The notes: generated by a model from the letters alone, not told the origin. DNA of 64,000 nucleotides from an uncultured Candidatus Saccharibacteria bacterium (GCA_964549935.1 CAZJVT010000001.1:155922-219921), one strand, 5' to 3'. Positions 5,169 to 26,629 are shown, counted from the first letter of the stretch. Translations and numbers: made by a program.

Positions 5169-5813
5169 ATGAAAAATCGCAAAGACTACATATCCGACAA
5201 GAACCTCTTTACTAAGGATTTGCCGGGGCTCTCGCAAAAGATGCTCGAGCAGCACTTTAAGCTGTATGAGGGATACGTGAAGAAGAGTAATGAGATTCAG
5301 ACGAAGGTTGATTCGGCGGACAAGAGCGAGGCGAATGGTGTGTACAGCTTTATTGGTGAACTGAAGCGCCAGGAGACCTTCGCGGTTAACGGCATGAAAC
5401 TACACGAGGTGTACTTCGGCCACTTACAGGGCGACGGCGACATATCAAAGGCACCGGAGTTAGCGGCAATGATTGAGAAAGATTTCGGTTCCGTGGACGC
5501 CTGGAAGGAGGAGATGCTGGCAACCGGTATGAGCGCCCGCGGGTGGTCGATTACCGCCTTTGATTATCGCGACAATCGGCTGCACGTGTATGGCAGCGAC
5601 GGACACAACGTCGGCGCAGTCTGGGGCGCGGTACCCGTCATTGTCTTAGATGTCTACGAACACGCCTACTTTATTGATTACGGCATCAGCCGCAAGGCGT
5701 ACATAGATACCTTTTTCCAGAATTTAGACTGGAAGTTTGCGGGAGAAATCGTCGCTGAATACGGACTTACTGCTCGATACGGCAAGGAGCGTGCGCAGAA
5801 TAGCGCGCAGTAA
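5169..5813 (+). CDS. sodA: Fe/Mn superoxide dismutase family protein, possibly divergent in the N-terminal metal-ligand region.
   Basis: C-terminal signature VLDVYEHAYFIDY matches the D-x-W-E-H-A-Y-Y SOD motif. GMKLHEVYFGHL and GWSITAF resemble other SOD blocks. The N-terminal HHxKHH block is reduced to QHFKLYEGYV. Confidence 0.55.
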   Translation: MKNRKDYISDKNLFTKDLPGLSQKMLEQHFKLYEGYVKKSNEIQTKVDSADKSEANGVYSFIGELKRQETFAVNGMKLHEVYFGHLQGDGDISKAPELAAMIEKDFGSVDAWKEEMLATGMSARGWSITAFDYRDNRLHVYGSDGHNVGAVWGAVPVIVLDVYEHAYFIDYGISRKAYIDTFFQNLDWKFAGEIVAEYGLTARYGKERAQNSAQ

Positions 5814-6638
5814 TTAGAGCTGCATCGGCTTCTTGCCGTCCGGCTGGATTTCGGTGAGCACGAGCTTGCCGTCTTTAAGGTTCGCAGCAAGCAGTTTGAC
5901 TCGCTTGCCCTCAAAGCCAGGGAGATTCATAGTCCAGACAGAGGGCTCCGGGTTAAAGGCGCGGATTTTATTGTAGATAGTTTTTGGGTCGTTTTTGACC
6001 ATATCCACCTCGCCTTCAGCGGTCGTGAATTTACGAGTAAAGGTTGCCCGGGAGTGGTCCTGTTCGCGCGGCGTTATCTCGCCGGAGATAAATTTCGGCA
6101 GTGTTTCGGTGAGGAGCGCTCCGGCAGCCGCGGCGCACTTTTTTTCGAGCGAGGTGTTTGTCTCGTTATCTGCAATTTGCACTTTGCAATCCGCAATTAT
6201 TTCCCCGTGGTCCATCTTAACGTCCATCAGGTATAAGGCCACGCCGGTTTCTTTTTCGTCAGCAAGTAGCACAGACTGCATTGGGCTAGCGCCTCGGTAT
6301 TTTGGCAGGAGTGACGGGTGAACGCCGATAGTGCCTAGGCGCGGGAGGTCTAAAAGGCCTTGGCCGATAATCTGCGGGTAGCCCATAACTATAAAAAAAT
6401 CAGCATTCAGTTTTTGAAGTTCCGGTATGATATCCGAGGCTTTTTCAGGTTGCAAAATCTTGATGGGCCAGCCTTTTTCAGTAATCAGTTGCTTGACGGC
6501 CGGAGGAGTCAGTATCTTTTTGCGGCCGGCCGGGCGATCAGGGCTGCAGACAATGGCGGCGGGCATAAAGCCACTTTCAACGAGCCGATTTAAAATATCA
6601 GCCGAAACGTGGAAGCTGCCGAAGTATACAAAGTTCAT
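5814..6638 (-). CDS. fmt: Methionyl-tRNA formyltransferase.
   Basis: HPSLLPKYRGASPMQ and the N-terminal formyltransferase fold motifs; sits downstream of def on the same strand. Confidence 0.9.
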   Translation of the reverse strand: MNFVYFGSFHVSADILNRLVESGFMPAAIVCSPDRPAGRKKILTPPAVKQLITEKGWPIKILQPEKASDIIPELQKLNADFFIVMGYPQIIGQGLLDLPRLGTIGVHPSLLPKYRGASPMQSVLLADEKETGVALYLMDVKMDHGEIIADCKVQIADNETNTSLEKKCAAAAGALLTETLPKFISGEITPREQDHSRATFTRKFTTAEGEVDMVKNDPKTIYNKIRAFNPEPSVWTMNLPGFEGKRVKLLAANLKDGKLVLTEIQPDGKKPMQL

Positions 6639-6639
6639 A

Positions 6640-6700
6640 GTAGTTAGTAGTTAGTAGATAGTAGATAGGGCATGGGATTTCGAGTTGCTTACTACTGTCT
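6640..6700. repeat. Simple tandem repeats in the def-fmt intergenic region.
   Basis: tagtagt tagtagt tagtagatagtagatag, followed by two copies of ttactactgtctac. Confidence 0.5.
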
Positions 6701-7214
6701 ACTTACTACTGTCTACTTTTCCCTGGAGACGTTCGGTCACGGCTATGGCGCGAGTTTTCTTTGCTTTGTCGGCGTACAAAATGCCATTTGTGTGATCAGT
6801 CTCATGCTGGAAGATGTGCGCCAAAATGCCCCAGGCTTTTATTTTTATTTTCTTGCCATTTTTGTCCTGGCCTTCAATCACTAATTTTTCGTAACGGGGG
6901 ACGTCGCCGTACTGGCCGGGTATTGAGAGGCAGCCTTCTTCCATTAAAACTGGGTCGCCCTCTGTTTTAGTAATCTTTGGATTAAAGATGGCATAAAACT
7001 TACCACCCTCCGGCGGCTGCGCGACGAAAAATGCCTCGTTGCTGCCAATCTGTGTTGAAGCAAGCCCGATGCCGTGCCACTCGTGCATTTTGACGCGCAT
7101 CTCCTTAATCATGGCGCTGATTTCGGTTTTGGTGTGTTTCGTAAAATCAAAAGGCTTGCACTTTTTGTGCAATAACTTTTCGTGCTCCGGGTTGTGGATA
7201 GTGTGTAGTTCCAT
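6699..7214 (-). CDS. def: Peptide deformylase.
   Basis: GIGLASTQIG, EGCLSIPG and HETDH motifs. Confidence 0.9.
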   Translation of the reverse strand: MELHTIHNPEHEKLLHKKCKPFDFTKHTKTEISAMIKEMRVKMHEWHGIGLASTQIGSNEAFFVAQPPEGGKFYAIFNPKITKTEGDPVLMEEGCLSIPGQYGDVPRYEKLVIEGQDKNGKKIKIKAWGILAHIFQHETDHTNGILYADKAKKTRAIAVTERLQGKVDSSK

Positions 7215-7504
7215 TACTTTCTGATTTTAATCATTTTGTTTTCTTCGCGGAGGTTCCGGACGACGCTCATAAAGTAAGCTCCCAGATTTTGGACATCTTT
7301 GCGCTCTGCGATATCCTTGGCGATTGAAAGGATGCGGTCCGGGCCGTACTCCTTCACATATTTAATATACAATGCCTTGTGCGGTATGTCGTGTAAAATT
7401 GCGGCCACCTCCAAGCCAATTAGTTGGAATTCCTGGCTGATATTGCTCTTCGAGGCTCGCTTTTGAAGGGTTTTAAGGTACCCGCTACCGCTGACTGCTT
7501 CCAT
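7214..7504 (-). CDS. Hypothetical small protein upstream of def, possibly DNA-binding; start codon uncertain.
   Basis: The ORF stop overlaps the def start by 1 nt (translational coupling). Longer in-frame starts at 7624 and 7660 would overlap the divergent ctpA start. Confidence 0.35.
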   Translation of the reverse strand: MEAVSGSGYLKTLQKRASKSNISQEFQLIGLEVAAILHDIPHKALYIKYVKEYGPDRILSIAKDIAERKDVQNLGAYFMSVVRNLREENKMIKIRK

Positions 7505-7628
7505 GGCATCTATCTTAGAGAAATAATACCAAAACAGCAACTGTAGTAGTTTTGCGTTGCGAGACTTAGTCCGACTTCGTGACGAAAAGCAAATCGTAGA
7601 AACTACTCTGTATGGTATACTCATTCGT

Positions 7629-8891
7629 ATGCCTAAAATGAAGTCATTTTTAAGAGACAATCTCCCGGTTGCGATCAGCGCGATTTTAATTTTTGTCGCC
7701 CTTACTGTTGGTGGATATTACATTGGATATAAACGAGGGGCCGTGAGTTCTACGACAACTGCGACGACCGAAGGTGCCGCGGCGCAGGCAGATTACAGCG
7801 TGTATTGGCAAGCTTGGAAAGTTTTGAAAGATAATCACATCGATGCCGCTAAGAAAACCGACAAAGACTTTATGTATGGTTCGATCGCCGGCCTTACACA
7901 GGCCCTGGGTGACCCGCACACTGTGTTTTTCCCGCCCGAAGATGGCAAGAGCTTTGCCGAGCAGGTTAACGGTAGTTTCGGCGGCATCGGAGCTGAAATC
8001 GGCGAGAAAGACGGACTCATCAGTGTCGTTGCTCCACTTAAAGGCAGTCCAGCTGAGAAGGCCGGTATTCTTGCGGGTGACATAATCTTAAAGATCGGCG
8101 CAACGAGCACCGAAAATCTGGACGTTAATCACGCGGTCAATATGATTCGCGGCGAAATCGGAACCAAAGTCATTCTGAATGTCTTCCGCAAAGAAAAGTG
8201 GATCCAGCCGCGCGACATTACTATCGTTCGTGACCGCATTGAGCTGCCGACACTTGATACGACGTACTACGATAAGAATAAGATTGCTGATTTGCAGCTC
8301 TACGCCTTTAACGCCAACGCGCCGGTCAAGTTTTACCAGGCAGCGACTGATATGTTGCTCAAAGGTACGAAAGGGATTATTTTGGACCTACGCAACGATC
8401 CGGGAGGATTTTTGGATGTAGCACACGACATTGCCGGGTGGTTCGTTGACCGCGGCACGCTCGTTGTCTCCGAGCGCAGAAAGAATGGGCCCGACGAGAC
8501 TTTGCTCGCTACCGGCAATGGTGCGCTCAAAAAGTTACCGGTTGTTATTTTGATGAACCGAGGTTCGGCTTCGGCCTCCGAAATTCTTGCTGGTGCTTTG
8601 CGCGACACGCGTGATGCTAAAATCGTCGGCGAAAAGAGTTATGGCAAAGGAACGGTGCAAGAGGTTATGGACTTAAAGGATGGCAGCAGCTTGAAAGTCA
8701 CGATCGCGCACTGGGTGATGCCGAAGGGCAAGATTTTGGACCACAATGGTATCGACCCGGACTACGTTGTACTTCCGACAGATGATGATATAAAGAATAA
8801 GAAAGACGTGCAGCTTGAAAAGGCGCTGGAGATTCTCCGCGCGCAGATTAACGGGACTCCGCTTCCGCCTGCCGTTGCCGCGACGAAGTAA
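7629..8891 (+). CDS. ctpA: Carboxy-terminal processing protease (S41 family) with a PDZ domain and an N-terminal membrane anchor.
   Basis: PDZ block GGIGAEIG..GSPAEKAGILAGDIILKIG; S41 blocks LILDLRNDPGGFL and LMNRGSASASEILAGALRD. Confidence 0.85.
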   Translation: MPKMKSFLRDNLPVAISAILIFVALTVGGYYIGYKRGAVSSTTTATTEGAAAQADYSVYWQAWKVLKDNHIDAAKKTDKDFMYGSIAGLTQALGDPHTVFFPPEDGKSFAEQVNGSFGGIGAEIGEKDGLISVVAPLKGSPAEKAGILAGDIILKIGATSTENLDVNHAVNMIRGEIGTKVILNVFRKEKWIQPRDITIVRDRIELPTLDTTYYDKNKIADLQLYAFNANAPVKFYQAATDMLLKGTKGIILDLRNDPGGFLDVAHDIAGWFVDRGTLVVSERRKNGPDETLLATGNGALKKLPVVILMNRGSASASEILAGALRDTRDAKIVGEKSYGKGTVQEVMDLKDGSSLKVTIAHWVMPKGKILDHNGIDPDYVVLPTDDDIKNKKDVQLEKALEILRAQINGTPLPPAVAATK

Positions 8892-10705: not shown

Positions 10706-11152
10706 ATGCAAAACCTCTCTGCCGCAAAACTACTCGGGTTTGCTGCTGCAGGGGTGCTACTTGTCGGAGTGGGTGTTTTGCTCGGAAGAGTTGATTTTTC
10801 TACTTCAAAACTTGTTCAGCAGGCGAATGGTTTTCGTTTGCTCGCCGAAGTGCCGCGCCAGACAAGCAGTTCAATCGTGAGCACTGCAGACGCTGCCAAG
10901 CCTGCCACTAAAAAATCAGGATTTGTCGCCGCGGCACAGGCCGTTTTTTCTGCCCGTAGCGTCGTAGCCGCAACGACAACGCCGGCTACAACCACAACTT
11001 CGACGATAGTTTTCGCGGCCAGGACATCGGAAATTTCTTTGCCTGTTGCGGATGACTGTAAATTTCAGACGAATCAGTTCCCAAATTACGAAAATTTAGT
11101 TTTAAACGAAATCGCCTGGATGGGCACGCCGGAGGACAGCGGCAACGAATGG
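10706..11152 (+). pseudogene. 5' fragment of a secreted lamin-tail-domain (LTD) protein gene, interrupted by the integrated element.
   Basis: N-terminal TM anchor and a low-complexity linker. The fragment ends ..YENLVLNEIAWMGTPEDSGNEW, exactly at the conserved LTD start (NEIAW..NEW-IEL), then runs into element DNA and stops at 11185. Confidence 0.6.
11143..11152. repeat. Left 10-bp direct repeat (caacgaatgg) at the insertion junction of the integrated element.
   Basis: The identical 10-mer occurs at 21371-21380. It encodes the N-E-W of the LTD motif on both sides. Confidence 0.6.
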
Positions 11153-11256
11153 CCTGTCCCGCAAAAGGATTACCGATATATCTAAAGGTCGATCTTTGTA
11201 AGAAAGAGCATACTTCTGCCGTTGTCTGAATTATCTTTCTTTGACATACTGGAACA

Positions 11257-13254
11257 ATGGATAAAAAGCGCCAATCACGAATTTACGAACTATTGAAGAA
11301 AGGACTAGCTCTTATAGGGGCTGGAGAAGAATTGCCTGTTGATTGGGCTAAAGAATTTTTCCCACCTGAGAGGAGAGAGTATGAGCTTGTTTATCATGGC
11401 AAAGAGTCAGAAGAAAATATTCTTGCTGACACGATGTCGGTTCCATTGCAGCCAGTTAGCAACTTTGGGGAGGATAACGGAGAGTGGGATAACAAGTTGA
11501 TTTTTGGAGATAATCTTCAGGCTATGAAAAAGTTGGTGGAGATGAAAGAAAGAGGTGAGCTGGTTAATGCAGACGGAACTTCTGGGGTTCGTTTGATTTA
11601 TATCGATCCTCCTTTTGCGACTAAAAGAGATTTTCATGGCACTAGAGATCAAGAGGCGTATCAGGATAAGATTGTTGGTGCTGAATTTTTAGAATTTCTC
11701 AGAAAGAGATTAGTTTTTTTAAGGCAGCTCATTGCTGAAGGCGGCACAATTTATGTGCATCTCGATTCTAGAAAGGGTCATTATATCAAGACGATTATGG
11801 ATGAGATTTTTAGCGGTTTCGAGTTTGCTGAAATCGCATGGGTTTGCGGTTTAATGGGTTCAGGCAAATACTATCCGAAAGCTCATGAAAATATTTATTG
11901 CTACAAGTCACCAAGGGCACCATTTAACCCTCCTCCGAGAATCGGTCTTTCTCAAAGGATCACCAAGGCTTTGCAAAAAGACAAAAATGGATGGTTCTAT
12001 ACACGAGGCAAAGAGAGCAGCGGAGGATCAAGTTATCTTAAATCTTACATTTGCTTAGATTCGAAATTGAGCAAAGAACAAGCAATCGAATTTGCCAATG
12101 AATATAGGCCTCAACAAGCATGGAGTGTTTGGATGGGCAAAAGAGAACTCGCTTATGAATTCAATGATTATCCAGTTGGAACCTATGCATATACAGGGAC
12201 CGAGAGCGTAGGATATCCAACTCAAAAGCCAGAAGCTTTGTTGGCGAGGATTATAAATGCTTCTTCTAACAAAGGAGATATCGTGCTTGATGCCTTCGCT
12301 GGTTCGGGAACGACATGCGCCGTAGCGGAAAAGCTAGGACGGCGTTGGATTGGAATTGATTGCGGTAAGTTATCTATCTATACAATCCAAAAGCGCTTGC
12401 TGAACCTTCGTTCAGAAATTGGTAATACGGGCGATCTAATAAAACCAAAACATTTTACGCTCTATAATGCAGGATTATATGATTTTGATTCTTTACGGAA
12501 ACTGCCGTGGGAAAGTTGGAGATTTTTTGCTTTACAGCTTTTCGGCTGCAAAGACGAAACGCACAAGATTAAGGGGTTTCATCTAGATGGCAAGAAGCAA
12601 GGTTACAGCGTCTTAGTTTTCAATCATTTTCAGAATGGGGTTATTAGTAGGGAGACGATTGAAGAGCTGCATGCACACATCGGGAAACAAATCGGCAATA
12701 AATGCTTCATCATAGCTCCTCGAGGTGCCTTTTTGTTTCAAGAAGATTATTTAGAGCTAGACAGCGTGAGATATTATGCGCTTCGTATTCCTTACTCATT
12801 TATCAACGATCTTCATGCGCGACAATTCTCTGCCCTTACTCAGCCAAATGATGAGACTGCTGTTAATGAAACTGTTGAGGCAGTAGGGTTTGATTTTATC
12901 CAAGCGCCCGCCGTGGATTACCAGCTCCAGCAAGTGGGAGAATTTACTTATTTGAAAATTAAAAAATTTGAAAGTCGGGCAAGAGTCCGCGGGAGCGATC
13001 AGAGGGGTGGGCTTGAAACATTTTCGATGCTTATGATTGATTCAAATTATGATGGCAAGGTTTTTGATCTGGATCAGGTATATTTTGCCCATGACATTGA
13101 AGTTGCGAAATGGCGGATGAAGTTGCCAACTGGTCGGGGAGACATTATGGCGGTATTTCTGGACATTTATGGTAATGAAGCTAGAATTCTTTTGCGAAAG
13201 GGAATACCCTTGAGAGCGCCTCGGAAAGTAGCTGTTAGGAAAAAACATGCCTAG
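11257..13254 (+). CDS. mod: Type III restriction-modification system N6-adenine DNA methyltransferase (Mod subunit).
   Basis: [29 protein letters not shown] (motif IV DPPF) and [11 protein letters not shown] (motif I). At 665 aa its size fits Mod. Confidence 0.85.
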
Positions 13255-15775
13255 AACAAATTCAAATCAGGAGAGTTTCCAAAATGAAGACCTCGTACTC
13301 AAGGTCAGTCCTGCTGTTGATCGGAGACGATGGGATGAGGATCGGTATGAGGCTTTTTTGGATGAACTTTGTGGTTCTCGTGAATTTCAGAAAAAAGCGA
13401 TCCAGACTGCATTGAGATATTTGCTTGGACAAGAATATTCTGATCTTAAAGAATTGGCTCATTCTAATTTTGAGCAGAACGAAATGCTCCCTAAAAGATA
13501 TGGGTCATGGGCTAATATGGAGAGGAATTTGCAATTACCCAAACAGCTTTCTGCCTCGCTTGATTTAGCAACGGGCACAGGGAAAAGTTATGTGATGTAT
13601 GGAATTGCTGCGATCATGCTTGCTGAAGGTGCAGTAGATCGAGTCTTGATACTTTGTCCTTCTACTACAATCGAAACGGGGCTCGTGGAAAAATTTAAGA
13701 ATTTAGCAGCTCAGGCCGATCTAAGAAATCTTTTACCTGCCGATGTTAAATTGAAATCTCCAAAGATTATAGATGCCCGTGAAAGCATAACCAGTGGCAG
13801 TATTTGTATTGAGAATTATCATGCAATTTTAGAGCATGTGCGTTCTTCAATCAGAGAAAGCTTGGAGGGTAAAGGCGAAAGAACATTAATTCTAAATGAT
13901 GAAGCTCATCATGTAGCTAATGAGAGTACTGCTAAGGTTGGAAAGTGGAAAGAATTTTTAACTGATAAGAAATTTAATTTTAAGTATATTATCGGCGTAT
14001 CGGGCACATGCTATATCAGCAATGAATATTTTACGGATGTCATTTTCCGTTACTCATTGCGGCAAGCGATGGACGAAGGTTTTGTGAAAAAAGTGCATTA
14101 TGTGGCAGAGATGCCGACGACATCAAGTCCTGATGTTAAGTGGCAGTTGGTTTTGAACCGACATAATGAGATCGGTAAGAAATTAAAGGTACGCAAAATT
14201 CGTCCTTTGACGATTGTCGTTACTCAGACTATCGAGAGGTGCAAAGATGTTGCCGAGGAGCTAAAGGCATTTCTCATGGATCAGTCTGGGAAAACTCGTG
14301 AGCAGATTGATGAACAGGTATTGGTTGTATACAATAATGCGCCTGATGTTTTAAGGCTTTCTTCTGTAGACTCAAATAAAAGTAAAGTAGAGTGGATTCT
14401 GTCTGTCTCAATGTTGAATGAGGGGTGGGATGTAAAAAGAGTTTTCCAAATTGTTCCTCATGAGGAGAGAGCATTTAATAGTAAATTGCTTATAGCACAA
14501 GTGTTAGGTCGAGGTTTGCGCAAGCCAGAGGGCTGGCAGGGCGAGCAGCCGCAAATTACAGTTTTCAACCATGATGCATGGGCTTCGAGAATTAAGAAGT
14601 TGGTTGACGAGATAACAGAGTCAGAGAAAAGAATACCGACTTTCCCTATCAAGAATTCTTCTCTAAATTTTGAATTACTTAATATTGAGTACGATCCTAA
14701 GCCATATACTACAACTTATCCGATGGAGCGTCCTTATCGTATCTTTACCAAAGGATATATCGATTTAGCAACAGAAAAACCTGTCGAAGATGTCAGTATT
14801 GAATTTGTAGATGCTGGCTCAGGGCTAAGAACAAATTGGAAAACGAAGATTAAGCACAAGACTCATTCAGTCAAGGAGGTTGTAGAAGTGATGCATCAGC
14901 GCTTAGAGGATGCTGATCATTTGATAAATCCTAATTCCAAAGACAGTGAGCATTATACAAGTCAGTTTCCTAGATCTAAACTCGAAGAAATCATTAAGGA
15001 GTCTCTTAAGATGGCTGGCGTTAAAGATATCACAGACGGAATCAGGCAAAAGTTTCTTCAATCTTTAGGAACTTTACAGCGTAAGGAGGCTCAGGTTGTT
15101 CGTTATAAGTTCGAAGTGCAGAAGTACTTTCCTGTTGCTACTCAAGATCGATCTGACGAGAGCGTGAGTGCTGCTGATTTAAGAAGTTCGAATAAGACTT
15201 TATTCTTTACTGCCAAGACAGTCGAGACGCTTCCTGATGAGTCTAAGGAGTTCTATGGAGAAGCTACTGAGCCGGGCAGCGGATTTAAGTGTTACCCTAT
15301 TTCGAATTATCATGATTTTAGAAGTCCGTTAAATGCAGTAATCGCCGATCATGAGAATGAACGTCGTTTTATCAAGGAGTTGATTAATACCGAGAATACT
15401 CCGCATATAGTAAGCTGGATTAAGTCTACATCAATGGGGTTTTATGAAATTGATTATGCATGGAAAAAAGGCGAGCATCCGAAGAGAGGGAAGTTCAACC
15501 CAGACTTTTTTGTGTTGACTAAAAAGTTAGTCTTGGTAGCTGAAATCAAAGATGATTTAGAATTGAATGATCCGTCTGAAGAGAATCGCAAAAAAAGTGA
15601 ATATGCTCAACAGCATTTCGAGAGGATCAATGCCTTTCTTGCTAAGAAGAAAGCTTCTGTTAGGTACAAGTTTAATTTTCTGACCCCTTCTGATTTCGGC
15701 GGTTACTTTCAAAGTATCCGTGATGATAGTGTTCAGAACTTTCGTTCTAAACTAGATGTGAAATTAGCTGAATAG
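13247..15775 (+). CDS. res: Type III restriction endonuclease Res subunit (SF2 helicase-like).
   Basis: Walker [12 protein letters not shown] and DEAH box [10 protein letters not shown]. Its start overlaps the mod stop by 8 nt. 842 aa. Confidence 0.85.
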
Positions 15776-16020
15776 TTTTTGTCCCTGAATCAAGTCCTTA
15801 AATTTACAAAGGAGCATCTCTATCCTATAGTTAAGGTACAATTTAATTGACCTAACCCATTCGAGCAATCGAATGGCACGGTCTTAAAACCAATCACGGC
15901 AGAAAGCTCCTAGTCAGAGCAACCGTGATTGGTCATATCTGGAAACGGATATGGGTGGCCCGAAAGGGTTTCATCGCTGGCTGGGAGCTTTGTGATTTCT
16001 GGCTGGCTCATTAACAATTT

Positions 16021-16194
16021 ATGAAAATAAAAACTTCGTGGGGGGATAACAAGAGATCATTAATTGCTCTTGCGATCTGGATTGGCTTTCTGTTCATCAT
16101 GAACAGCATGGGCATTCAGCTCGGTTTAGTCGTTAACCTACTTATTGCCGTAGTACTCTTTTACTTAGCGCATAAAACTAAGAAACATGAATAA
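16021..16194 (+). CDS. Small two-TM membrane protein (57 aa); its start overlaps the next gene.
   Basis: MKIKTSWGDNKRSLIALAIWIGFLFIMNSMGIQLGLVVNLLIAVVLFYLAH. ATGA-type overlap with the 16187 ORF. Confidence 0.35.
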   Translation: MKIKTSWGDNKRSLIALAIWIGFLFIMNSMGIQLGLVVNLLIAVVLFYLAHKTKKHE

Positions 16195-16540
16195 TCAGTA
16201 TGCTCGTAAGATAGCTTGGTTACTTCTTGTCGTAGTGGTAGTGCTGCTATACATGGCGGGCTTCTGGTCAGCAGTATGGTCGTTGTTTAAGTCATTGCTG
16301 CTGCTAATTATTGCACCGTTCTTTCTCTTCGGAGATTTGATTGAGAAGAATTCGGCTGTATTGAATTGGGTTGTAGGTCTCGGATTTGGCTTGATGGCGA
16401 TAGGACTTGTTCTACAAAATCAGCACTTCAAGAAAATCACAGGTAAGGAGTATCCGAAGCTTGTGAAATGGATTACGAGAATTGCAACTGTGGTAGTTGC
16501 TTTCAGCGGCATATCTCTTTTGCTTTCAAAATTGTTCTAG
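16187..16540 (+). CDS. Hypothetical membrane protein (3 TM).
   Basis: Hydrophobic segments LLLVVVVVLLYMAGFW, LLLLIIAPFFLFG and VVGLGFGLMAIGLVL. Confidence 0.5.
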   Translation: MNNQYARKIAWLLLVVVVVLLYMAGFWSAVWSLFKSLLLLIIAPFFLFGDLIEKNSAVLNWVVGLGFGLMAIGLVLQNQHFKKITGKEYPKLVKWITRIATVVVAFSGISLLLSKLF

Positions 16541-16619
16541 CGCTTGGCTAACCTTTTCAACCAGCATGCTTATCTCTTAAAATTAAGAGGTAGCATTCAT
16601 GTCATCGTGTTAATCGAAC

Positions 16620-17045
16620 ATGGCATTTCAAAAAGGAAACAAGTACGGTAAAGGAGCAAAGCCATCAAATGCAACATTGGCTCAGCGGAAGATGCGCGAG
16701 TGGCTGATGAAGCACCTAGAGAAAGACATGCCAGAGTTGTATCAAGCGCAGCTGTCTCTTGCAAAGGGATATCAGATACTGCTTGCTCGTCAATTTGAAA
16801 CAGATACGAAAACAGGCAGAAAGAGCAGAACTGGCAAATGGGTCATGATTACTGATCCGGAGGAAGCACTGCAACTTTTGAATGGTAACCAGAAAGATAT
16901 TTTCAAGATGGTTACGACAGAGCCAGATCCCAAGGCATCTTCGTACTTAATGAGCCAAGCAGTTGGAGCACCAACTCAAACTGTTGAGATGCCTGCATTG
17001 GCGGATTCATTAGTTGAGATTATCAGCCGAATGGATGCGGAATAG
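16620..17045 (+). CDS. Hypothetical protein. The Lys/Gly-rich N-terminus resembles phage small-terminase or DNA-binding proteins.
   Basis: MAFQKGNKYGKGAKPSNATLAQRKMREWLMKHLE..; resemblance is by pattern memory only. Confidence 0.35.
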   Translation: MAFQKGNKYGKGAKPSNATLAQRKMREWLMKHLEKDMPELYQAQLSLAKGYQILLARQFETDTKTGRKSRTGKWVMITDPEEALQLLNGNQKDIFKMVTTEPDPKASSYLMSQAVGAPTQTVEMPALADSLVEIISRMDAE

Positions 17046-17262
17046 CCGTATTACGAGAGAGGATAAACAGCTCCGTAGCAGAGCGTAATCAGCTCAAATT
17101 GGTATCTTTGCCTGCTTGATAGCAGGTTATCATTGGTTTCAGGGTAGAGAGCGTTATGCGTCATTTTAAGCTCGTTTTTGATCAAAACAGGTATTAAGGC
17201 AGGTAATACCTGCTGTTTTTGACAGTTTCGTATTAGAGGTCTAAACTCGGTTAAAACGAAGT

Positions 17263-17661
17263 ATGAAAGTACCCTTCGATATTTGCTGTCCAAACTGTCA
17301 CTTGCTTCTTCTCGAAGACGGTGTCCTTAGTGATCATGGAGAACCTCGTTACTTTGATTGTCAAAGGTGTTCTGTGACTTTCTCTCTTAACATGAGCAGT
17401 GTCGGAAGGCCCGATGAAGGTCAGAAAGGAATCAACGGCCAATTTGAATTCGAGCTTGTAATCGGTCCAGAGAAAGAGGGTCGGCGTTGGACGCAGCTGA
17501 ATCAGAATTTGCTTCCTGTCTTGAGCTGTCCGCTGATGGGTCGTATTGAAGTCGGTCAATCCATCGGAGGGCTATCTTATCTAGGAGACGACACCCCGTT
17601 GAACTGTAATTTCTGTGGTGCGAAATTCCTGACAAGGATTTTATATCAAGAGAGCGATTGA
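17263..17661 (+). CDS. Hypothetical zinc-ribbon protein.
   Basis: Cys pairs CCPNCH..CQRC..CNFCG arranged like a double zinc ribbon. Confidence 0.45.
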   Translation: MKVPFDICCPNCHLLLLEDGVLSDHGEPRYFDCQRCSVTFSLNMSSVGRPDEGQKGINGQFEFELVIGPEKEGRRWTQLNQNLLPVLSCPLMGRIEVGQSIGGLSYLGDDTPLNCNFCGAKFLTRILYQESD

Positions 17662-18024
17662 CTTTTTAATAAATTGCGCTATCATGACACTGTCGGTAAT
17701 TAAATAAGTGCTTGAGGAGCTGTCGGGAGGTGCTAGTGATTCCACGGAGTGGAAGTACCTAGCTTGTGAACAACAAGAAGGCCTTCGGTAGATCCAAACT
17801 AACTCTTTTTGAGTTAAGGTTTGGGTTTTCCGAGGGCTATTTTGTTTCTTGAACAAGAAGCGGATAGGCAAAATTGCGGTACGCGGACTGAAGTTCAATC
17901 CTGATATCAGCCCCAGCGTTCAGTCTGAAATCATCGACCAGCTGTTGGGCGTTTTAGGCATTGCCGGATTTGGTATGGGGCGGAGGGAGACAAGTAAAGG
18001 TCGAGCACCTCCGAACAGAAAAAT

Positions 18025-18414
18025 ATGAAACTCATACCCACAGGTAATTTTCTTATGGTTCCCAGTGAGCTGATTGAGGGCTATATGAAGAAAATGGAGT
18101 ATCCAGAGTTTTGCTTTTTTATGGCGCTGTTGATGTTGGCGCATAGGTATTCTGATGAATTCTATTGCTCAGACGAAAGAATCTCAAAAAAGTTCGGAAT
18201 CAGTAAGCGAACTATCAGCAGATGCCGTAAACAATTGGAATTGAAAAAGTTGATTGAATTCAATCCGGGATATCGTAATGGTAAGGCGGCACGAGCAACA
18301 ACTTATAAGATTTTCCCAAGTAAGGCCCTGCGGATCAAGTTGCGCATCAAGCAGCATGCCAAGTCGGCTCCTACCCAGCAAGCCAAGCGGGCAAGCCAAT
18401 TAAGAAACAAGTAG
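18025..18414 (+). CDS. Helix-turn-helix protein resembling the N-terminal HTH of phage or plasmid replication initiators.
   Basis: ISKKFGISKRTISRCRKQLELKKLIEF is an HTH. It is preceded by a 360-nt noncoding region with direct repeats. Confidence 0.45.
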   Translation: MKLIPTGNFLMVPSELIEGYMKKMEYPEFCFFMALLMLAHRYSDEFYCSDERISKKFGISKRTISRCRKQLELKKLIEFNPGYRNGKAARATTYKIFPSKALRIKLRIKQHAKSAPTQQAKRASQLRNK

Positions 18415-18453
18415 TTAATTAATAAAAGTAAATAACTTATTAACTTCGTTAAT

Positions 18454-18861
18454 ATGCAAAATCGAGATTTTAAGGAGAAGCTGGATCAATTCAGGAAAGA
18501 ACATCTAAAGAAATACAAAGCTCAGTCAGATGTGCAAAAAGTCGTAGAGTTCTTTTTCCTCGTTAAGGATTTTCGAAAGACCCTTAATTGGAAGCCGCCG
18601 TTTGCCCAGAATGTCAGGGTTGCTAAACAGATCATCGAGTGGGCAAGAGGCGATTTAATAAGGGCATATGGACTCATTTATGACTGCTCACTGTATTTTG
18701 AAGAGAAGAAGTTGCACGACTGGGGCTTGAACGGTGTTTATAGGTCCATACCTGCGTATAAGGAGAATAGGATTTATCATCAGCACGAGAATCTATCTGA
18801 AGAGCAGCAGTCCGAAATTGAAGAGGCAAGAACACGAAAGCGTATTGCAGAGATGAGCTAA
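18454..18861 (+). CDS. Hypothetical protein (135 aa).
   Basis: Clean ORF with protein-like composition inside the element; no recognisable motif. Confidence 0.4.
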   Translation: MQNRDFKEKLDQFRKEHLKKYKAQSDVQKVVEFFFLVKDFRKTLNWKPPFAQNVRVAKQIIEWARGDLIRAYGLIYDCSLYFEEKKLHDWGLNGVYRSIPAYKENRIYHQHENLSEEQQSEIEEARTRKRIAEMS

Positions 18862-18921
18862 CACCGTTGTTAACAGTCGTCCTTTAGAGGTTCTTTCGTA
18901 TCTCTTATTATTAAACGAAAT

Positions 18922-19704
18922 ATGAAAAATCTCTCTCAGGAGATACAAAGGCAGGCCTACGGCTATATTCGTGTCAGCACATCAGAGCAAAGCGAGAGTG
19001 GTTTGGGCTTAGATGTTCAGCAAAGTCAGATTGAGAAATACTGCAAAGACAAAGGCATTGAGTTAATAAAGATTTTTGAAGATCCGGGCTTTTCAGGTGC
19101 CGATGCTGATCGTCCGGGTCTTCAGAGTCTGATTATTCAGGCAAAGAGCAACGGTGTAAACCTGATACTGCTGGCTCACTCAAGCCGTCTTGCAAGAGAT
19201 TCAATGCTTGCAGAAATTATCTATCGTGATTTGAGAAAAAACGGCATTACCCTTGTCTCGGTTGCACAGCCAAGCTATTACGAAGAAGACGGAGACTTTC
19301 AGAGAAAGCTCGTCAGGACGATTCTAAGTGCTTTTGACGAATACGAGAAATCACTGATTAGTTGGAGACTTAAAAACGGTAGAGCAAAAAGAGTTGAGCT
19401 AGGAGGTTGGCATGGAGGCTGGGTTTACGGTTATCGGCACGGCAAAAAAGGCAAGCTCATAATCAACCAGAAAGAGGCCGACACAGTGAAAAAAATGTTC
19501 TATCTCCGTAAAAGCAAACGAATGAGTCATACGGGGATTGCTAGGGTGCTAAACAGTGAGGGCATTCCAACTAAAAAGAAAGATGCAAAGTGGCACAGTG
19601 CCACGGTTAAGAAGATGTTGAATAATCCGATTTACAAAGGGCTGCTTAATTATCGAGGTAAGACATATCAAGGTCATCATGAAAAAATCATTAAAGACGA
19701 ATGA
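18922..19704 (+). CDS. Serine recombinase with a resolvase catalytic domain plus a partial recombinase domain, and no zinc ribbon or coiled coil.
   Basis: YGYIRVSTSEQSESGLGLDVQQSQI holds the catalytic Ser region. GGWHGGWVYGYR..PIYKGLL is recombinase-domain-like. Confidence 0.8.
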   Translation: MKNLSQEIQRQAYGYIRVSTSEQSESGLGLDVQQSQIEKYCKDKGIELIKIFEDPGFSGADADRPGLQSLIIQAKSNGVNLILLAHSSRLARDSMLAEIIYRDLRKNGITLVSVAQPSYYEEDGDFQRKLVRTILSAFDEYEKSLISWRLKNGRAKRVELGGWHGGWVYGYRHGKKGKLIINQKEADTVKKMFYLRKSKRMSHTGIARVLNSEGIPTKKKDAKWHSATVKKMLNNPIYKGLLNYRGKTYQGHHEKIIKDE

Positions 19705-21385
19705 ACGAAGTCAACAAAAACGAGCCGCAATCTATTGCCGTGTTTCTAGCGATGAGCAGGTTAGAGGATACAGTTTGTCTACTCAGCAAGATCAGATTAC
19801 TGAGGTCATTGAAAAAGACAGTCTAAGCTTAGACAGCAAAAATGTTTTCGTCGACGATGGGTATACTGGCACCACCGACAACAGGCCTGCTTTGCAGAAG
19901 ATGATTGAGCAAGCCAAGAAAAAACAGATTGATGTCATATATGTTTGGAAGATTGACCGGCTCTACAGAAATACGAAGCTTATCCTTGGCTTAGTCGACG
20001 AACTACTTAAGTACGATGTCAGCGTCAAGTCGATTTTAGAGCCACATTGTGATAACTCAGACCCGAGAAGCCGTTATGTATTTACGATGCTTGCAGCTGG
20101 AGCAGAGATGGAACACGCGACCATTAAGGAGAGGACTCAGGGAGGCAAGGTCAGGGCCATGAAAGACGGCAAATGGGCTGGCATTGCGCCTTATGGCTAT
20201 GATGTTGACGCAGAGACTAAAAAGCTCATTATCAATGAGCATGAGGCACGCTGGGTAAGGAAGTTTTTCCAGTGGTTTGTTAACGAGAGAATGACATTAC
20301 ACAGATTGCAGGTTCGCATTAATGCTTCCAGCATACCGTCGAAGCTAGACAACCTTGCTGAAAAGAAAACTAAGCACGGTCGTCGTTATCAGCAGAAAAC
20401 TAGGAATGACAAGTTTTTCTGGGCAAAGAGAACGATAGACCGAATACTGACCAGAGAGATGTATGCAGGCACTCATGTTTTCAGGCAATACGATTCTCGG
20501 AGCAAGGCCATGACGGAATCCAATATGCGACCTCAGTCAGAGTGGATTCCAGTTTCGGTGCCAGCGATTGTAAGTCGAGAGATTTTTGATGCGGCTCAAA
20601 AACTGCTTAAGCGCAATAAGCGAGATTCACCAAGACGAACTTCTAGGGTTTATCTTTTCGGTAAGAAACTTGAGTGTGGTTTTTGCCATCGTCGTCTTCA
20701 GTCTGATTACGCTAGGCCTAAAATACGGAAAGACGGGACAAGAAAAGAGGATTACAACTACTACATAGGATCTTGGCATTGTGGTGGATACACGAATAAA
20801 AGATGTGAACATTGCGTAAGATACAATGAGAACAATTTGCGAGAGCCGATTTGGAATAGCATAGTCAAGCTACTTTCAAGTCCAGAGCTTGTCATAAATC
20901 TGATTTTGGAAGGTAGGTCTCAAAAAGAGGGAACATCAAATTTAGGGGAGCTTATTGTCAGCTACGAAAAAAGAGAAGTTGGATTCAAGATGCGCGAAGA
21001 GAGACTGTTGAACCTTCATCTTAGCGGTGAGCTTGATTTAGAGATTTACAGGAAAAAGAAAGCAGAGATAAAGGAACAGCGGCAAGAATTTGATAACGAG
21101 AAAAGGCGGATAGAGAATCTAGCAATTAACGAAGCAGAGAAGCGCAATAGAGTAGTTTCCGCAAAAGCGATCTATCGTAAACTTAGAGAACGATTAGCAA
21201 CAGCGACTTATGAACAGCAGGCGAATATTATTAAGGTTCTAGTTGAAAATATCGTTCTGAATGATCAGGAGGCAGAGATTGAGGTTAATCTTCCATTGAA
21301 AGAAGTTGTTCCACAATTCGTTGCTCGAATAGAAGCTAGTGATAAAAGTCCCGAAGTTTTGTGTGACAACCAACGAATGGATTGA
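19679..21385 (+). CDS. Large serine recombinase (integrase type) with a recombinase domain, zinc ribbon and C-terminal coiled coil.
   Basis: AAIYCRVSSDEQVRGYSLSTQQDQI; zinc ribbon CGFCHRRLQ..WHCGGYTNKRCEHC; coiled coil EIYRKKKAEIKEQRQEFDNEKRRIENL. Its start overlaps the previous recombinase by 26 nt, and its 3' end abuts the right junction. Confidence 0.85.
   Translation: MKKSLKTNERSQQKRAAIYCRVSSDEQVRGYSLSTQQDQITEVIEKDSLSLDSKNVFVDDGYTGTTDNRPALQKMIEQAKKKQIDVIYVWKIDRLYRNTKLILGLVDELLKYDVSVKSILEPHCDNSDPRSRYVFTMLAAGAEMEHATIKERTQGGKVRAMKDGKWAGIAPYGYDVDAETKKLIINEHEARWVRKFFQWFVNERMTLHRLQVRINASSIPSKLDNLAEKKTKHGRRYQQKTRNDKFFWAKRTIDRILTREMYAGTHVFRQYDSRSKAMTESNMRPQSEWIPVSVPAIVSREIFDAAQKLLKRNKRDSPRRTSRVYLFGKKLECGFCHRRLQSDYARPKIRKDGTRKEDYNYYIGSWHCGGYTNKRCEHCVRYNENNLREPIWNSIVKLLSSPELVINLILEGRSQKEGTSNLGELIVSYEKREVGFKMREERLLNLHLSGELDLEIYRKKKAEIKEQRQEFDNEKRRIENLAINEAEKRNRVVSAKAIYRKLRERLATATYEQQANIIKVLVENIVLNDQEAEIEVNLPLKEVVPQFVARIEASDKSPEVLCDNQRMD
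21371..21380. repeat. Right 10-bp direct repeat (caacgaatgg).
   Basis: Identical to 11143-11152. Confidence 0.6.
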
Positions 21386-22409
21386 GCTGCGCAATGCTAG
21401 CGATACTGCAATAAATGTCGGCGGATACTGGGTGATTGATAAAGCAGAACAGATTAAGGCGCATCTGCCAGAGAAGGTGCTCGGTCCGGGTGAATTTTAT
21501 TTACTGGAACGCGGCGATGACGCGGTGCCGTCATCAACGGCTGATTTTATATATACAGGCGGGTTAAGTAATAGTAACGAGGGGGTCCGCGTGTATGATC
21601 CAACCTGCACGCTCGTTGACCAGGCGCTCGCTGAACCGAAGTGGCCTGCCGGCGCTACCTCGCAGAAACGTAGCATGGAGCGCGGGGGTGATTGGCGGTG
21701 GTACAGCTACCAGGGCGAAGCCGTGAATGCAATTTTTGGCACGCCAAAGGCAAAGAATACTGCGCCAAATACGGCCGCGGGGCAGTATTTCCCGCCGCCA
21801 GTTGTAATCTCGACCCCGGCAATCGCCGAAGCCACCTCTTCGAGTACGACAAGTACTGCAGAATTAGCGAGCGCGGCAAACGTCATCATTCCGGACGCAC
21901 CGGAGTCAGACTCCGGTACTGATACGGGTGCAGGGCAGAGCGTGACGGGCTTGGATCACATCGTGATTAGTAGCGTGCAAACGACCGGCGGTTTGGGGCA
22001 TACCACCGAAGACTTTGTCGAGCTCTACAATCCGCTGGCAACGCAATTTAATTTAAAAGGTTCTCGTTTGGTGAAGCGCACGAAGGTTGGCACGAGCGAT
22101 ACCTCGCTCAAATCCTGGACAGACGATGCTTTCATCCCAAGCGGGGGAAGATATCGCTGGGCCAATACCGGATACCCAGGGAGTGCGGACGTGCGCACAA
22201 GTGGGAGTATCGCTGATGACAACGCGGTTGCGCTCCGACAAGGCAGCGAGGATACCGGAGTCATTATCGATGCAGTTGGTTGGGGGCAGGCGAGCAATGC
22301 TTTAGTTGAGTCCTCTCCGTTTAGCACCAACCCGACTGTCGGGCAGGTCTTAGCTCGTAAGCAGTGGGTTGATACAAGTAGCAACGCTTCGGATTTTGAA
22401 ATCCGTTGA
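21381..22409 (+). pseudogene. 3' fragment of the interrupted LTD protein gene, with two lamin-tail domains.
   Basis: Continues ..(NEW)IELRNASDTAINVGGYWVIDK..GEFYLLERG..GGLSNSNEGVRVYDP, with a second LTD at ..DFVELYNP..NLKGSRL. An in-frame ATG at 21339 inside the integrase 3' end could drive a truncated product. Confidence 0.6.
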
Positions 22410-22910: not shown

Positions 22911-24971
<2,061 letters not shown>

Positions 24972-25175
24972 CTCGCGCAGAATTCGTGCGCTGCTTTTGC
25001 TCTCGCGGGGCACAGGCATATTTTCCCGGTGGAAAATTGCCTTCGTTCTCGCGCCGTCGCGCTGCGAAAGTCCCCGCAAAAGCAAAAGCAGTGCACATTC
25101 TGGTTGAGGTAACCAAATTTTCTAAGCGCAGCGCGGATTGTAGCTGCTTCGCAGCTTTTTAGTTCTATATTTCTC

Positions 25176-25213
25176 ACGGCTCAACGGCGGGTCGTTGAGC
25201 CGTGAGATTTTTG
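25176..25213 (+). repeat. 38-nt hairpin repeat, copy 1.
   Basis: acggctcaacggcgggtcgttgagccgtgagatttttg. 13-bp stem plus T-run; a second copy lies at 26336-26373 with 1 mismatch. Confidence 0.6.
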
Positions 25214-25232
25214 TTCATAGAAAGATGAGGGA

Positions 25233-25260
25233 TTGACTTTTAATATAAATGTGCTATTAT
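25233..25260 (+). promoter_or_regulatory. Sigma70-like promoter for the island-B coiled-coil gene.
   Basis: ttgact, 16-nt spacer, tattat, about 75 nt upstream of the RBS and ATG at 25337. Confidence 0.45.
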
Positions 25261-25336
25261 ATGCCTCTGCTGAGCGGCGCCTATGGTTGGTGTCCGGCAG
25301 ATGGTTTGTTTGGGTTTCGGTTCGGAAGGAGAGGTC

Positions 25337-26230
25337 ATGGCCCAGGTTAACGTCGGGGAGCTGCTCGAGAGGGCGTTCCCATCGGTCGCTGGTTCCGAAG
25401 GCAAGGTGCTGGTCGTGGGTGGAAGGAACACGAACTTCACCTACTACGAAGAGCTCAAGGCGACCGGGCGCGTCATCTTCTGGCTCGAGGACGAGGCACG
25501 TCGCAAGGACATACTGCCGCCGGGAACGCGCGTGCTGGTGCTCACGCACTGGCGCGAGCCGACCTTCAAGCGGAAGTTCCAGCCGCAGTGCGAAGCCGCT
25601 GACGCGGTCGTGGTCGACGTCGGTTCGTCCACGGGTGTGTTCAACAAGTGGTCAGCTCGACTGCTCGAGGCCTGGAACGCGGCCGTGCCTGAGCGTCAGC
25701 CAGCTCCGGAGGAGCCCGAGGGCGACGAGGAGCTGATCTCCAGCGTCGAGCCGAAGGTCCCGCAGGACTTCAAGGAGTTGGTCAACTCGCTGCATGCCTT
25801 CCGGGGCATGCTCGATGAAACCCTCTGTGGAATTCCGGCCTCGATCCACGCCTTCGAGGAGAAGTTGCGGGCGGAGCTTCGGCCGCAAGTCCGGGCGGAG
25901 CTGCGTACCGAGGTGGAGAAGGACTTCGCGCTGCGCGTCACCACCGAAGTCGAGCGGCGGCGCGCTGAGATCCTTGCCAGTGTCACGAAGGACGCTCGGA
26001 CCCAGATCGGCGCCGCCGAGCGGCGTACCCTGGAGGTCGAGGATCTCAACAAGGCGCTGGCCGGAGCGGTGGGCGAGCGCGATTCCACGATCAAGGATCT
26101 GGAGGCGCGGCTCGCGGCCAAGGACGAGCAGATCAAGGCCAAGGACACGCAGATCGCCGAGTACAAGGTGGCACAGGAGGCGCTCGGTCGCTTCCTCTCG
26201 GTTGGCAAGACGCCACCCGGGCAGCAGTAG
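25337..26230 (+). CDS. Hypothetical protein with an N-terminal alpha/beta domain and a long C-terminal coiled coil; high-GC island gene.
   Basis: GGAGAG RBS 6 nt upstream. Very high GC3. Coiled-coil heptads in EKLRAELRPQVRAELRTEVEKDFALR...LEARLAAKDEQIKAKDTQIAEYK. Hairpin terminator at 26291-26335. Confidence 0.5.
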   Translation: MAQVNVGELLERAFPSVAGSEGKVLVVGGRNTNFTYYEELKATGRVIFWLEDEARRKDILPPGTRVLVLTHWREPTFKRKFQPQCEAADAVVVDVGSSTGVFNKWSARLLEAWNAAVPERQPAPEEPEGDEELISSVEPKVPQDFKELVNSLHAFRGMLDETLCGIPASIHAFEEKLRAELRPQVRAELRTEVEKDFALRVTTEVERRRAEILASVTKDARTQIGAAERRTLEVEDLNKALAGAVGERDSTIKDLEARLAAKDEQIKAKDTQIAEYKVAQEALGRFLSVGKTPPGQQ

Positions 26231-26335
26231 TCGGTCTGTCTAGGCGGGTGTCCTGACCACCCACAACTAAAGAAAGGAGCATTAGCAATTCAGCCGCCTC
26301 AAACACCAGTCGTGTCAGGCGGCTGTGTGTTTTTA

Positions 26336-26373
26336 ACGGCTCAACGGCGGCTCGTTGAGCCGTGAGATTTTTG
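26336..26373 (+). repeat. 38-nt hairpin repeat, copy 2.
   Basis: acggctcaacggcggctcgttgagccgtgagatttttg. Confidence 0.6.
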
Positions 26374-26446
26374 GCGCGTATTGCGTTGTTTCGCCTCCTA
26401 GGAGTAAGCTGAATTTGTTCCCAGGCTTCAACAAGGAGAACGTTCG

Positions 26447-26629
26447 ATGTGTTACCGAGACGACATCAGAACTACGCGGTACTGCAGCTTCTGCAACAAG
26501 CCCTATTACGGCGACCTCGGGCACCGCGGGTGCCAGGCCTTCAAGAAGAAGTCTCCGCCCGAAGAGGCCAAGCCTGCAGATGCCGAGAAGACGGCTCCTG
26601 AGGCAGAGAAGCCGGCCGGCACGAAGTGA
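26447..26629 (+). CDS. Small Cys-rich protein (60 aa), probably zinc-binding, with a Lys/Pro/Glu/Ala-rich tail.
   Basis: AAGGAGA RBS. YCSFCNKPYYGDLGHRGC motif. High-GC codons. Confidence 0.4.
   Translation: MCYRDDIRTTRYCSFCNKPYYGDLGHRGCQAFKKKSPPEEAKPADAEKTAPEAEKPAGTK

Follow-up and report, generated by a model that had tools for sequence, protein, structure and literature searches.

A serine-integrase island within a lamin-tail-domain gene of a Patescibacteria genome and its relatives at the same protein motif

Introduction

Insertion of mobile DNA into coding genes by serine integrases is established, as is the use of one coding site by diverse recombinase clusters (PMC5499854; PMC10083194). 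SPbeta, whose integrase SprA works with SprB, sits in spsM of Bacillus subtilis (PMC5499854), and Durrant et al. (2022) reported that distantly related clusters of large serine recombinases (LSRs) share one conserved site inside a coding sequence, with att sites of about 40-50 bp around a central dinucleotide (PMC10083194). Here, we analyzed a 64-kb stretch of DNA deposited as an uncultured Candidatus Saccharibacteria bacterium (GCA_964549935.1, CAZJVT010000001.1:155922-219921; all 64,000 nucleotides are hereafter called the window), in which about 10 kb of additional DNA splits a gene for a surface protein with lamin tail domains (LTDs). We conclude that window positions 11153-21380 are very probably a mobile genetic island that was placed in the LTD gene of a member of the Patescibacteria by its own LSR, here called LSR2, and that belongs to a family sharing an LTD motif as its target. 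To our knowledge, very few mobile elements have been characterized in Patescibacteria, and there are essentially no genetic tools for this phylum.

Results

An AT-rich island splits a lamin-tail-domain gene

An earlier model reading of the window, made without database searches (the sequence-only reading), placed an AT-rich element of ~10.2 kb precisely inside an LTD gene, with the same 10-mer at both junctions, and our data agree on each point. The 10-mer, CAACGAATGG, has exactly two copies in the window, at 11143-11152 and 21371-21380, both on the + strand; 0.13 matches would be expected by chance, and at least two copies occurred in 1 of 100 shuffles. GC content is 41.8% across the 10,228 bp between the repeats, compared to 50.1% in the left flank and 50.6% in the right flank. 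The left open reading frame (ORF; 10706-11185) reads ...NEIAWMGTPEDSGNEW and then enters the foreign sequence PVPQKDYRYI before its stop codon, and the right ORF (21339-22409) reads ...TTNEWIELRNASD. Joining 10706-11152 to 21381-22409 gave an in-frame product of 491 aa. Pfam detected the LTD (PF00932, E = 3e-18) at residues 127-230 of this joined protein, covering profile positions 4-104 of 109. The domain is therefore continuous across the junction at residue 149, and the two fragments rebuild one LTD motif, as had been proposed. The hydrophobic N-terminal segment of the host protein was judged by eye from its sequence.

A close relative carries the uninterrupted gene

A search with the joined protein returned the truncated product of the window's own genome together with full-length orthologues of 463-500 aa, and the alignment of the joined protein with eight full-length orthologues showed no break. 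In the nearest of these, the junction-spanning sequence, NE[IV]AWMGTPEDSGNEWIELRNASDT, is identical. The best orthologue, P0002 (500 aa), is an uninterrupted allele encoded by the related genome GCA_964641225.1 (locus L001). Its neighborhood is the same as in the window (L9, L27, an RNase H-like exonuclease, LTD, gyrB, secE, nusG and L11), and the GyrB proteins of the two genomes are 97% identical. By blastn, the window and this relative are collinear from ~3958 to 31470, with the 10.2 kb as a clean difference at the LTD locus. Residues 28-152 of P0002 aligned by tblastn to window positions 10787-11152, and the blastn and tblastn breakpoints fall at window positions 11152 and 21372. The uninterrupted site in the relative reads gatagcggtaatGAatggattgaattacgg. 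Two outcomes that the sequence-only reading had named as refuting it, a failure of the joined fragments to align as a single protein and the lack of any uninterrupted allele, were both checked and did not occur.

The best named matches to the window's GyrB belong to Candidatus Harrisonbacteria, Parcubacteria and Patescibacteria. We therefore assign the host to the candidate phyla radiation (CPR)/Patescibacteria, in line with the CPR-like host suggested earlier. Other copies of the window element were found only on short Logan contigs (SRR14271331, SRR14271332 and SRR14271336), where the junction, if included, is in the integrated state; the right junction was seen again in an independent Logan assembly (contig L002). 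A literature search for these run accessions returned no paper. An exact look-up of the truncated LTD product found no record.

LSR2 and its attachment sites

Based on homology and att-site anatomy, the 568-aa LSR2 is the predicted integrase of the island. Its catalytic domain matches PF00239 (E = 4e-36, residues 16-166) and is followed by a 'Recombinase' domain (PF07508, E = 2e-14, residues 187-313). In the alignment of its clade, the RVSS motif and D93/R94/R97 are invariant or at least 90% conserved, and cysteines 333, 336, 376 and 379 are invariant. Residues 58-529 align with SPbeta SprA (PDB 9dxh, E = 3e-16); identity to the phage integrases of our phage collection is at most 30%. The invariant cysteines and the SprA alignment, which covers this region and extends through residue 529, point to a possible zinc ribbon with an embedded coiled coil. 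LSR2 is predicted to be still active. Of the two serine recombinases thought to abut the right junction, it is LSR2 that adjoins and crosses it; the 260-aa recombinase SR1, described below, does not.

The final codons of LSR2 come from the P arm and the core, and its stop codon, TGA at 21383-21385, lies in host DNA: the integrated ORF ends in ...NQRMD, with TGA formed by the host codons ATT-GAG. The left arm of attP (P arm) codes for the C terminus of the recombinase (LCD in LSR2; relatives have LWD), which places attP within the gene, at its 3' end. After excision, LSR2 is predicted to be 592 aa long, 24 residues more than its integrated form, and the recombinase tails of relatives also have lengths set by host codons (561-586 aa). 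Such a host-dependent tail could let the recombinase differ between integrated and excised states.

The attP rebuilt from both ends of the island, TTTGTGTGACA-ACCAAC-GA-ATGGCC-TGTCCCGCAAA, is symmetric (11+6+2+6+11) around GA, and its arms are complementary at 9 of 11 positions. The P' arm of the window's attL also occurs in attL of the related elements L004 and L012 and in attP of L010. The core common to attL and attR is CAACGAATGG in the window, GAGTGGAT in L004 and GAGTGGAT in L012, with GARTGG as their intersection. Together with the center of symmetry and the off-target junction described below, this intersection places the crossover at GA. These two bases would be the first two of an invariant Glu codon (E148 in the alignment) within the LTD motif N-E-W/I-E-L, where the slash, here and below, marks the junction. 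A repeat search inside the element found no meaningful terminal inverted repeats and no internal res-like arrays.

Related elements occupy the same LTD motif

Exact look-ups, together with scans of contigs from metagenomes, genomes and viruses, supplied the genomic contexts of LSR2 relatives. The LSR2 clade holds ~18 relatives at 42-53% identity, plus more distant ones. An attR at the LTD motif is present in the window and in 11 further elements (L003, L004, L005, L006, L008, L009, L012, L014, L015, L016 and L021), whose recombinases are 29-53% identical to LSR2; in each of the 11, the 3' end of the recombinase gene leads into a P arm and, at this same motif, continues into the reading frame of an LTD gene. 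Occupied motifs include EEW/IELKN, DEW/IELYN, NEW/MELKN, KEF/VEFYN, QEW/IELYN, EEW/IEIFN and EEW/IEIYN, among others, and the target LTD genes are of several sizes and architectures (491, 621, 1140 aa with PKD domains, and others). Both attL and attR are present in L004 and L012, which are complete elements of ~11 kb in LTD genes. L010 has an intact attP, TTTGTGGGACA-AAAGAC-GA-GTGGGT-TGCCCCACAAA, with the same geometry as the window attP and arms matching at 10 of 11 positions, and represents the unintegrated form of a near relative of the L004 element. A further related LSR element, L021, comes from IMG/VR. No terminal direct overlap, which would indicate circularity, was seen on any related contig. 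As judged from these shared junctions, the window element is a member of a family and not a one-off.

One relative was found at a non-LTD site. L007, L013 and L020 are the same element in three data sets, carrying a type III-like mod/res pair, and its junction reads ...GGACGA/CTGTAAATAAGC (L007, ~8650-8792), with identity to the expected attP ending right after GA. This insertion reflects either off-target integration or a second target specificity. A scan of genome contigs for LSR2 relatives returned this off-target element and no other, under an Atribacteria label.

Several side observations concern these target sites. The ORF downstream of the L007/L013/L020 junction looked helicase-like by eye. 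L020 is MNYY01000120.1, labelled Candidatus Atribacteria, and this label may reflect mis-binning. In the host gene of the window, the second LTD domain has an unoccupied motif, EDF/VELYN, at ~22011 (+), which resembles the site of the L006 element, KEF/VEFYN.

LOOT RNA and the small ORFs

Coordinates of the island, its attachment sites and the two parts of the host gene are collected in Table 1.

Table 1. Features of the integrated island and the disrupted host gene in the window
Feature	Position	Strand	Remarks
Integrated element	11153..21380	+	10,228 bp, 41.8% GC; ends ambiguous within the 10-bp core; missing from the syntenic locus L001
Disrupted host LTD gene, 5' part	10706..11152	+	N-terminal hydrophobic segment, low-complexity linker, first half of LTD domain 1; ends ...NEW
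Disrupted host LTD gene, 3' part	21381..22409	+	Remainder of LTD domain 1, linker, LTD domain 2
attL	11122..11173	+	Host B arm; core CAACGAATGG 11143-11152; putative crossover GA 11147-11148; spacer ATGGCC; P' arm TGTCCCGCAAA 11155-11165
attR	21350..21401	+	P arm TTTGTGTGACA 21358-21368; spacer ACCAAC; putative crossover GA 21375-21376; core 21371-21380; host B' arm ATGGATTGAGCTGCGCAAT
Rebuilt attP junction sequence			...GTTTTGTGTGACAACCAACGAATGGCCTGTCCCGCAAAAGG...
attB junction sequence			...GGAGGACAGCGGCAACGAATGGATTGAGCTGCGCAAT...
LSR2, 568-aa large serine recombinase, predicted integrase	19679..21385	+	Pfam Resolvase and Recombinase
SR1, 260-aa serine recombinase	18922..19704	+	Pfam catalytic and 'Recombinase' domains; without zinc ribbon or coiled coil
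mod, N6/N4 DNA methyltransferase, 665 aa	11257..13254	+	Pfam N6_N4_Mtase, E = 2e-41
res, SF2 helicase-nuclease restriction subunit, 842 aa	13247..15775	+	Pfam ResIII, E = 1e-16, and C-terminal RE_endonuc at cut-off
LOOT RNA (Rfam RF03000)	15849..15972	+	81.2 bits vs gathering score 46.4; full model 1-121
ORF, 117 aa	16187..16540	+	Hydrophobic by reading, probably a membrane protein; no family match
ORF, 141 aa	16620..17045	+	May be an accessory factor or a recombination directionality factor; no family match
ORF, 132 aa	17263..17661	+	CxxC pairs; no family match
ORF, 129 aa	18025..18414	+	Helix-turn-helix (HTH), akin to the N-terminal domain of phage replication initiators/DnaD-like loaders; Pfam HTH_36 below cut-off
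ORF, 135 aa	18454..18861	+	No family match

An Rfam search detected a LOOT RNA near the left end of the island. A sigma-70-like promoter-like site (15803-15831) lies upstream of it, and a GC stem followed by a T run just downstream was noticed by eye in an alignment with the copies in L004, L012 and L016. LOOT is always on the recombinase strand and towards the left end, both in the window and in these three relatives (L004, 379-502; L012, 1594-1710; L016, 2950-3069). A scan of IMG/VR with a degenerate LOOT pattern, followed by Rfam, gave 28 stretches, two of which were real LOOT RNAs. One (L034, 8399-8517) is on a contig with a large terminase, an LSR and an HTH_36 protein, and the other (L039, 2016-2132) lies beside a distant serine recombinase. 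The Rfam entry gives LOOT only as sRNA, and we know of no role for this motif, which was described from environmental sequence. From its recurrent position, LOOT RNA appears to be a component of these elements.

All genes of the element are on the + strand. Pfam, PHROGs and PADLOC assigned no family to four of the five small ORFs of the window element. The remaining one, the 129-aa HTH protein, matched PHROGs 186, 678 and 270 (E = 4e-9 to 1e-6), with HTH_36 or Phage_rep_O proteins as its positional counterparts in L012, L016 and L034. Across the family, DUF5659 and HTH_36/Phage_rep_O proteins recur upstream of the recombinase. The CxxC pairs of the 132-aa ORF make it zinc-finger-like. Pfam and PHROGs identified no virion structural, packaging or lysis gene for any ORF of the window element, and its Pfam matches included no relaxase, coupling protein or type IV secretion family. 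One of the small ORFs may encode a directionality factor; none was identified in the window, and in L003 and L004 the HTH_17 gene beside the LSR could be one.

Restriction-modification genes and other cargo

The left half of the island carries adjacent mod and res genes that overlap by 8 nt. In PADLOC, Mod matched MTase_III (E = 1e-43) and MTase_II (E = 3e-53), and Res matched REase_III (E = 3e-9). Homologues of both are present in L007, L011, L013 and L020, at 31% identity for Mod and 33-34% for Res. The sequence-only reading had called this a type III restriction-modification system; the mod/res order and the Pfam and PADLOC domains are in keeping with this, and no curated equivalog cut-off was reached. 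We classify the system as type III-like by architecture only and predict that it is functional.

Other family members carry different genes. These include an MmeI-like enzyme in L004; a methyltransferase with a MamI-type nuclease (a type II system), a helicase and a tyrosine recombinase in L012; an S24 peptidase, a Y-family polymerase and SRAP in L003; and a Toprim primase in L005. Judging by these annotations, cargo in the family is variable and often encodes restriction-modification.

A second serine recombinase of a separate family

The ORF of the second serine recombinase, SR1, overlaps that of LSR2 by 26 nt, in one operon. Recent duplication of one recombinase gene was considered and rejected because SR1 and LSR2 are only 29% identical. 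In a phmmer search of the full library, the best relatives of SR1 were full-length proteins of ~235-285 aa with the same end position. We also rejected the possibility that SR1 is a truncated pseudogene, since its best homologues (~250 aa) are full-length and share its end point. The catalytic residues R17, S19, R89 and R92 are invariant among SR1 homologues. The description of the two genes as paired serine recombinases thus needs amending: both are present, but they are not equivalent, as SR1 comes from a separate, widespread family of short recombinases.

The position directly upstream of the LSR is filled in various ways across the family. L006 has an SR1 homologue (68% identical) and L021 a 187-aa resolvase (2047-2610) directly upstream of the LSR, and in L003 and L004 the SR1 position belongs to an excisionase-like HTH_17 gene. 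In L005, L009 and L012, the only SR1 homologue detected was the LSR itself, and L012 has a tyrosine recombinase (2645-3559) as its second recombinase. The variety seen in L012 and L021 suggests an interchangeable accessory recombination function. SR1 would then have an accessory role; the simplest is that it resolves multimers while the element is an episome, and the same may apply to the tyrosine recombinase of L012.

Other features of the window and its relative

Several further differences between the window and L001 were observed. L001 has a different LSR (493 aa, with a zinc-ribbon match) and an HTH_17 gene at 19783-21444, adjoining a tRNA-Asn gene, and a 3-kb insertion with a reverse transcriptase (RVT_1) at 5549-8591, between the L9 and L27 genes; neither is in the window. 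Conversely, window positions 24971-26698 have no blastn match in L001, which has ~460 bp between the flanking matches (14186-14650). This stretch contains a 315-aa ORF after gyrB (25283-26230, +) in a patch of ~60% GC, whose C-terminal half looked coiled-coil-like by eye.

At 32613-32893 (+), a tRNA-Asn(GUU) gene of the window is split in the anticodon loop by a ~208-nt group I intron. The last base of the 5' exon is U, and the last base of the intron is G. Rfam Intron_gpI matched over the full model with 40.7 bits (E = 6e-9), which is under the gathering score of 50. ARAGORN reported no tRNA in the window; L001 has an intron-less tRNA-Asn gene at 19722-19797. Low-GC stretches of the window at 33-34 kb and 36-42 kb were considered as further islands and rejected, as they contain ordinary host genes.

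Discussion

We propose that the attP of the element would recombine with attB in the host LTD gene through conservative site-specific recombination by LSR2. The crossover would fall at GA, with which the invariant Glu codon of the motif (N/D/E)-E-W/I-E-L begins. A shared backbone would comprise LOOT towards the left end, an LSR at the right end with attP in its 3' terminus, and an HTH protein resembling replication initiators, with variable cargo between these parts. In the window element, the type III-like mod/res genes would defend the host and stabilize the island, and after excision the element may replicate as an episome.

Several results weigh against this interpretation. Exact-protein look-ups found neither a circular or excised form of the window element nor an empty site from the same population. 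No NCBIfam model reached its cut-off for Mod, Res, SR1 or LSR2, with PRK15483 at 29.6 bits vs 564, and Pfam did not detect the zinc ribbon (PF13408) in LSR2 or its closest relatives. In tblastn searches against the related elements, none of the five small ORFs had a homologue, so the shared backbone rests on the LSR, LOOT and a domain-level likeness of the HTH proteins.

The element could instead be a decayed prophage or a phage satellite, a lysogeny/replication module of a CPR phage that depends on a helper for transfer. The match of the HTH protein to phage replication-initiator PHROGs points in this direction, as do the Phage_rep_O protein next to the LSR in L016, the presence of L021 in IMG/VR, and the co-occurrence of LOOT, an LSR and HTH_36 on the terminase-encoding IMG/VR contig L034. 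However, the LSR of L034 is not detectably close to LSR2, and neither the window element nor L004 or L012 has a capsid, portal, tail, terminase or lysis gene by Pfam or PHROGs. These three complete elements are all 10-11 kb, a constant size that argues for a stable small element rather than random decay. We therefore consider a phage origin of this sort unlikely. The element might also be domesticated and serve as a regulatory switch, with conditional excision restoring the LTD gene as for SPbeta/spsM and skin/sigK in Bacillus. In line with this, excision at GA would leave the reading frame perfectly repaired, and the SprA protein to which LSR2 is homologous drives such a switch (PMC5499854). 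Yet the family enters many LTD paralogues of differing size (491, 621, 1140 aa and others), a close relative lacks the element, the cargo is selfish or defensive (restriction-modification), and nothing ties excision to host physiology. Such a switch is, in our view, very unlikely.

How the two recombinases share the work is a related question. SR1 and LSR2 might be jointly needed for integration and excision, like CcrA and CcrB of the staphylococcal cassette chromosome SCCmec, or SR1 might be the directionality factor. The 26-nt overlap in one operon, the same tandem in L006 with an SR1 that is 68% identical, the 187-aa resolvase directly upstream of the LSR in L021, and the conserved catalytic residues of SR1 are all consistent with a joint role. 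Most family members nevertheless use the same motif without SR1, with HTH_17 genes in its place in L003 and L004 and no homologue found in L005, L009 or L012. Two parts with which large serine recombinases control att-site synapsis, the zinc ribbon and the coiled coil, are also absent from SR1, and the tyrosine recombinase of L012 would suit an exchangeable accessory function such as multimer resolution. We regard a joint requirement, or SR1 as the directionality factor, as quite improbable. Finally, a plasmid or phage contig might have been misjoined into a metagenome-assembled chromosome, as the genome is a metagenome-assembled genome and several related contigs break near the att site. At the two junctions a single gene is split into halves that match in frame, and the 10-bp core is duplicated; the right junction was reproduced in the independent Logan assembly L002, and the same type of junction occurs in 11 other elements from other assemblies. 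An artifact is therefore excluded for practical purposes, leaving integration by LSR2 as our preferred interpretation.

Beyond the single locus, we tentatively suggest that an old lineage of CPR LSRs has specialized on the E-W-I-E codons of LTDs, that its elements are small episome-like replicons, and that LOOT works in their life cycle; this is possible, and we hold it with low confidence. If true, the lineage would have a landing pad in many paralogous genes across many host lineages, and it would be the first defined family of integrative elements, with attP and attB known, for a phylum without genetic tools. LOOT may then act in replication control or in the decision between integration and excision, which would give an orphan motif a biological home. 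A target that is a conserved domain motif rather than a single gene is uncommon for site-specific serine integrases and means that a genome can hold several potential sites. The family has attP and attB sites known from sequence, a defined central dinucleotide, and natural integrated, unintegrated and off-target states, and is a source of candidate integration tools. The repeated restriction-modification cargo suggests that these elements are a route for the spread of defense genes among small genomes.

The sequence-only reading had called the arrangement one that is not routinely described. The literature that we searched contained nothing linking LTD genes or Patescibacteria with serine recombinases, and within it we found no description of the LTD target, the host phylum or the LOOT association; the main text of PMC10083194 does not contain the word 'lamin'. 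The mechanism is of a known kind. Like SPbeta, the window island has a large serine recombinase and a site within a coding gene, and excision would restore the ORF exactly. SPbeta, however, is a 134-kb functional phage, whereas the island is 10 kb without structural genes; its target and host phylum differ, and identity between LSR2 and SprA is low (E = 3e-16). Compared to the LSR elements cataloged by Durrant and colleagues, the family described here targets a domain motif in many paralogous genes and not one orthologous gene, and the hosts of the window and L001 belong to the CPR/Patescibacteria by GyrB. That LSR catalog is reportedly drawn mainly from NCBI genomes.

SCCmec (CcrA/CcrB or CcrC) resembles the window island as a non-phage, non-conjugative cargo island with serine recombinases and two recombinase genes in tandem, and Ccr models are the best, sub-threshold NCBIfam matches of SR1 and LSR2. 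In contrast to CcrA and CcrB, which are both full-length LSRs, SR1 ends after the Recombinase domain at 260 aa, as do its homologues, and a second serine recombinase is missing from most relatives of the window element. The insertion site of SCCmec is the 3' end of rlmH, a gene that stays intact. The restriction-modification genes share with type III systems (EcoP15I/EcoP1I) the mod-res order, the gene overlap, an N6_N4-class Mod, and a Res with an SF2 helicase and a C-terminal endonuclease; the window Res differs in its weak similarity to REase_III models (E = 3e-9). The LOOT RNA matches the full RF03000 model and differs from the motif as described in having a defined home, on LSR elements and phage-like contigs. 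This orphan motif thereby gains a genomic context, among serine-recombinase elements and on a phage-like contig.

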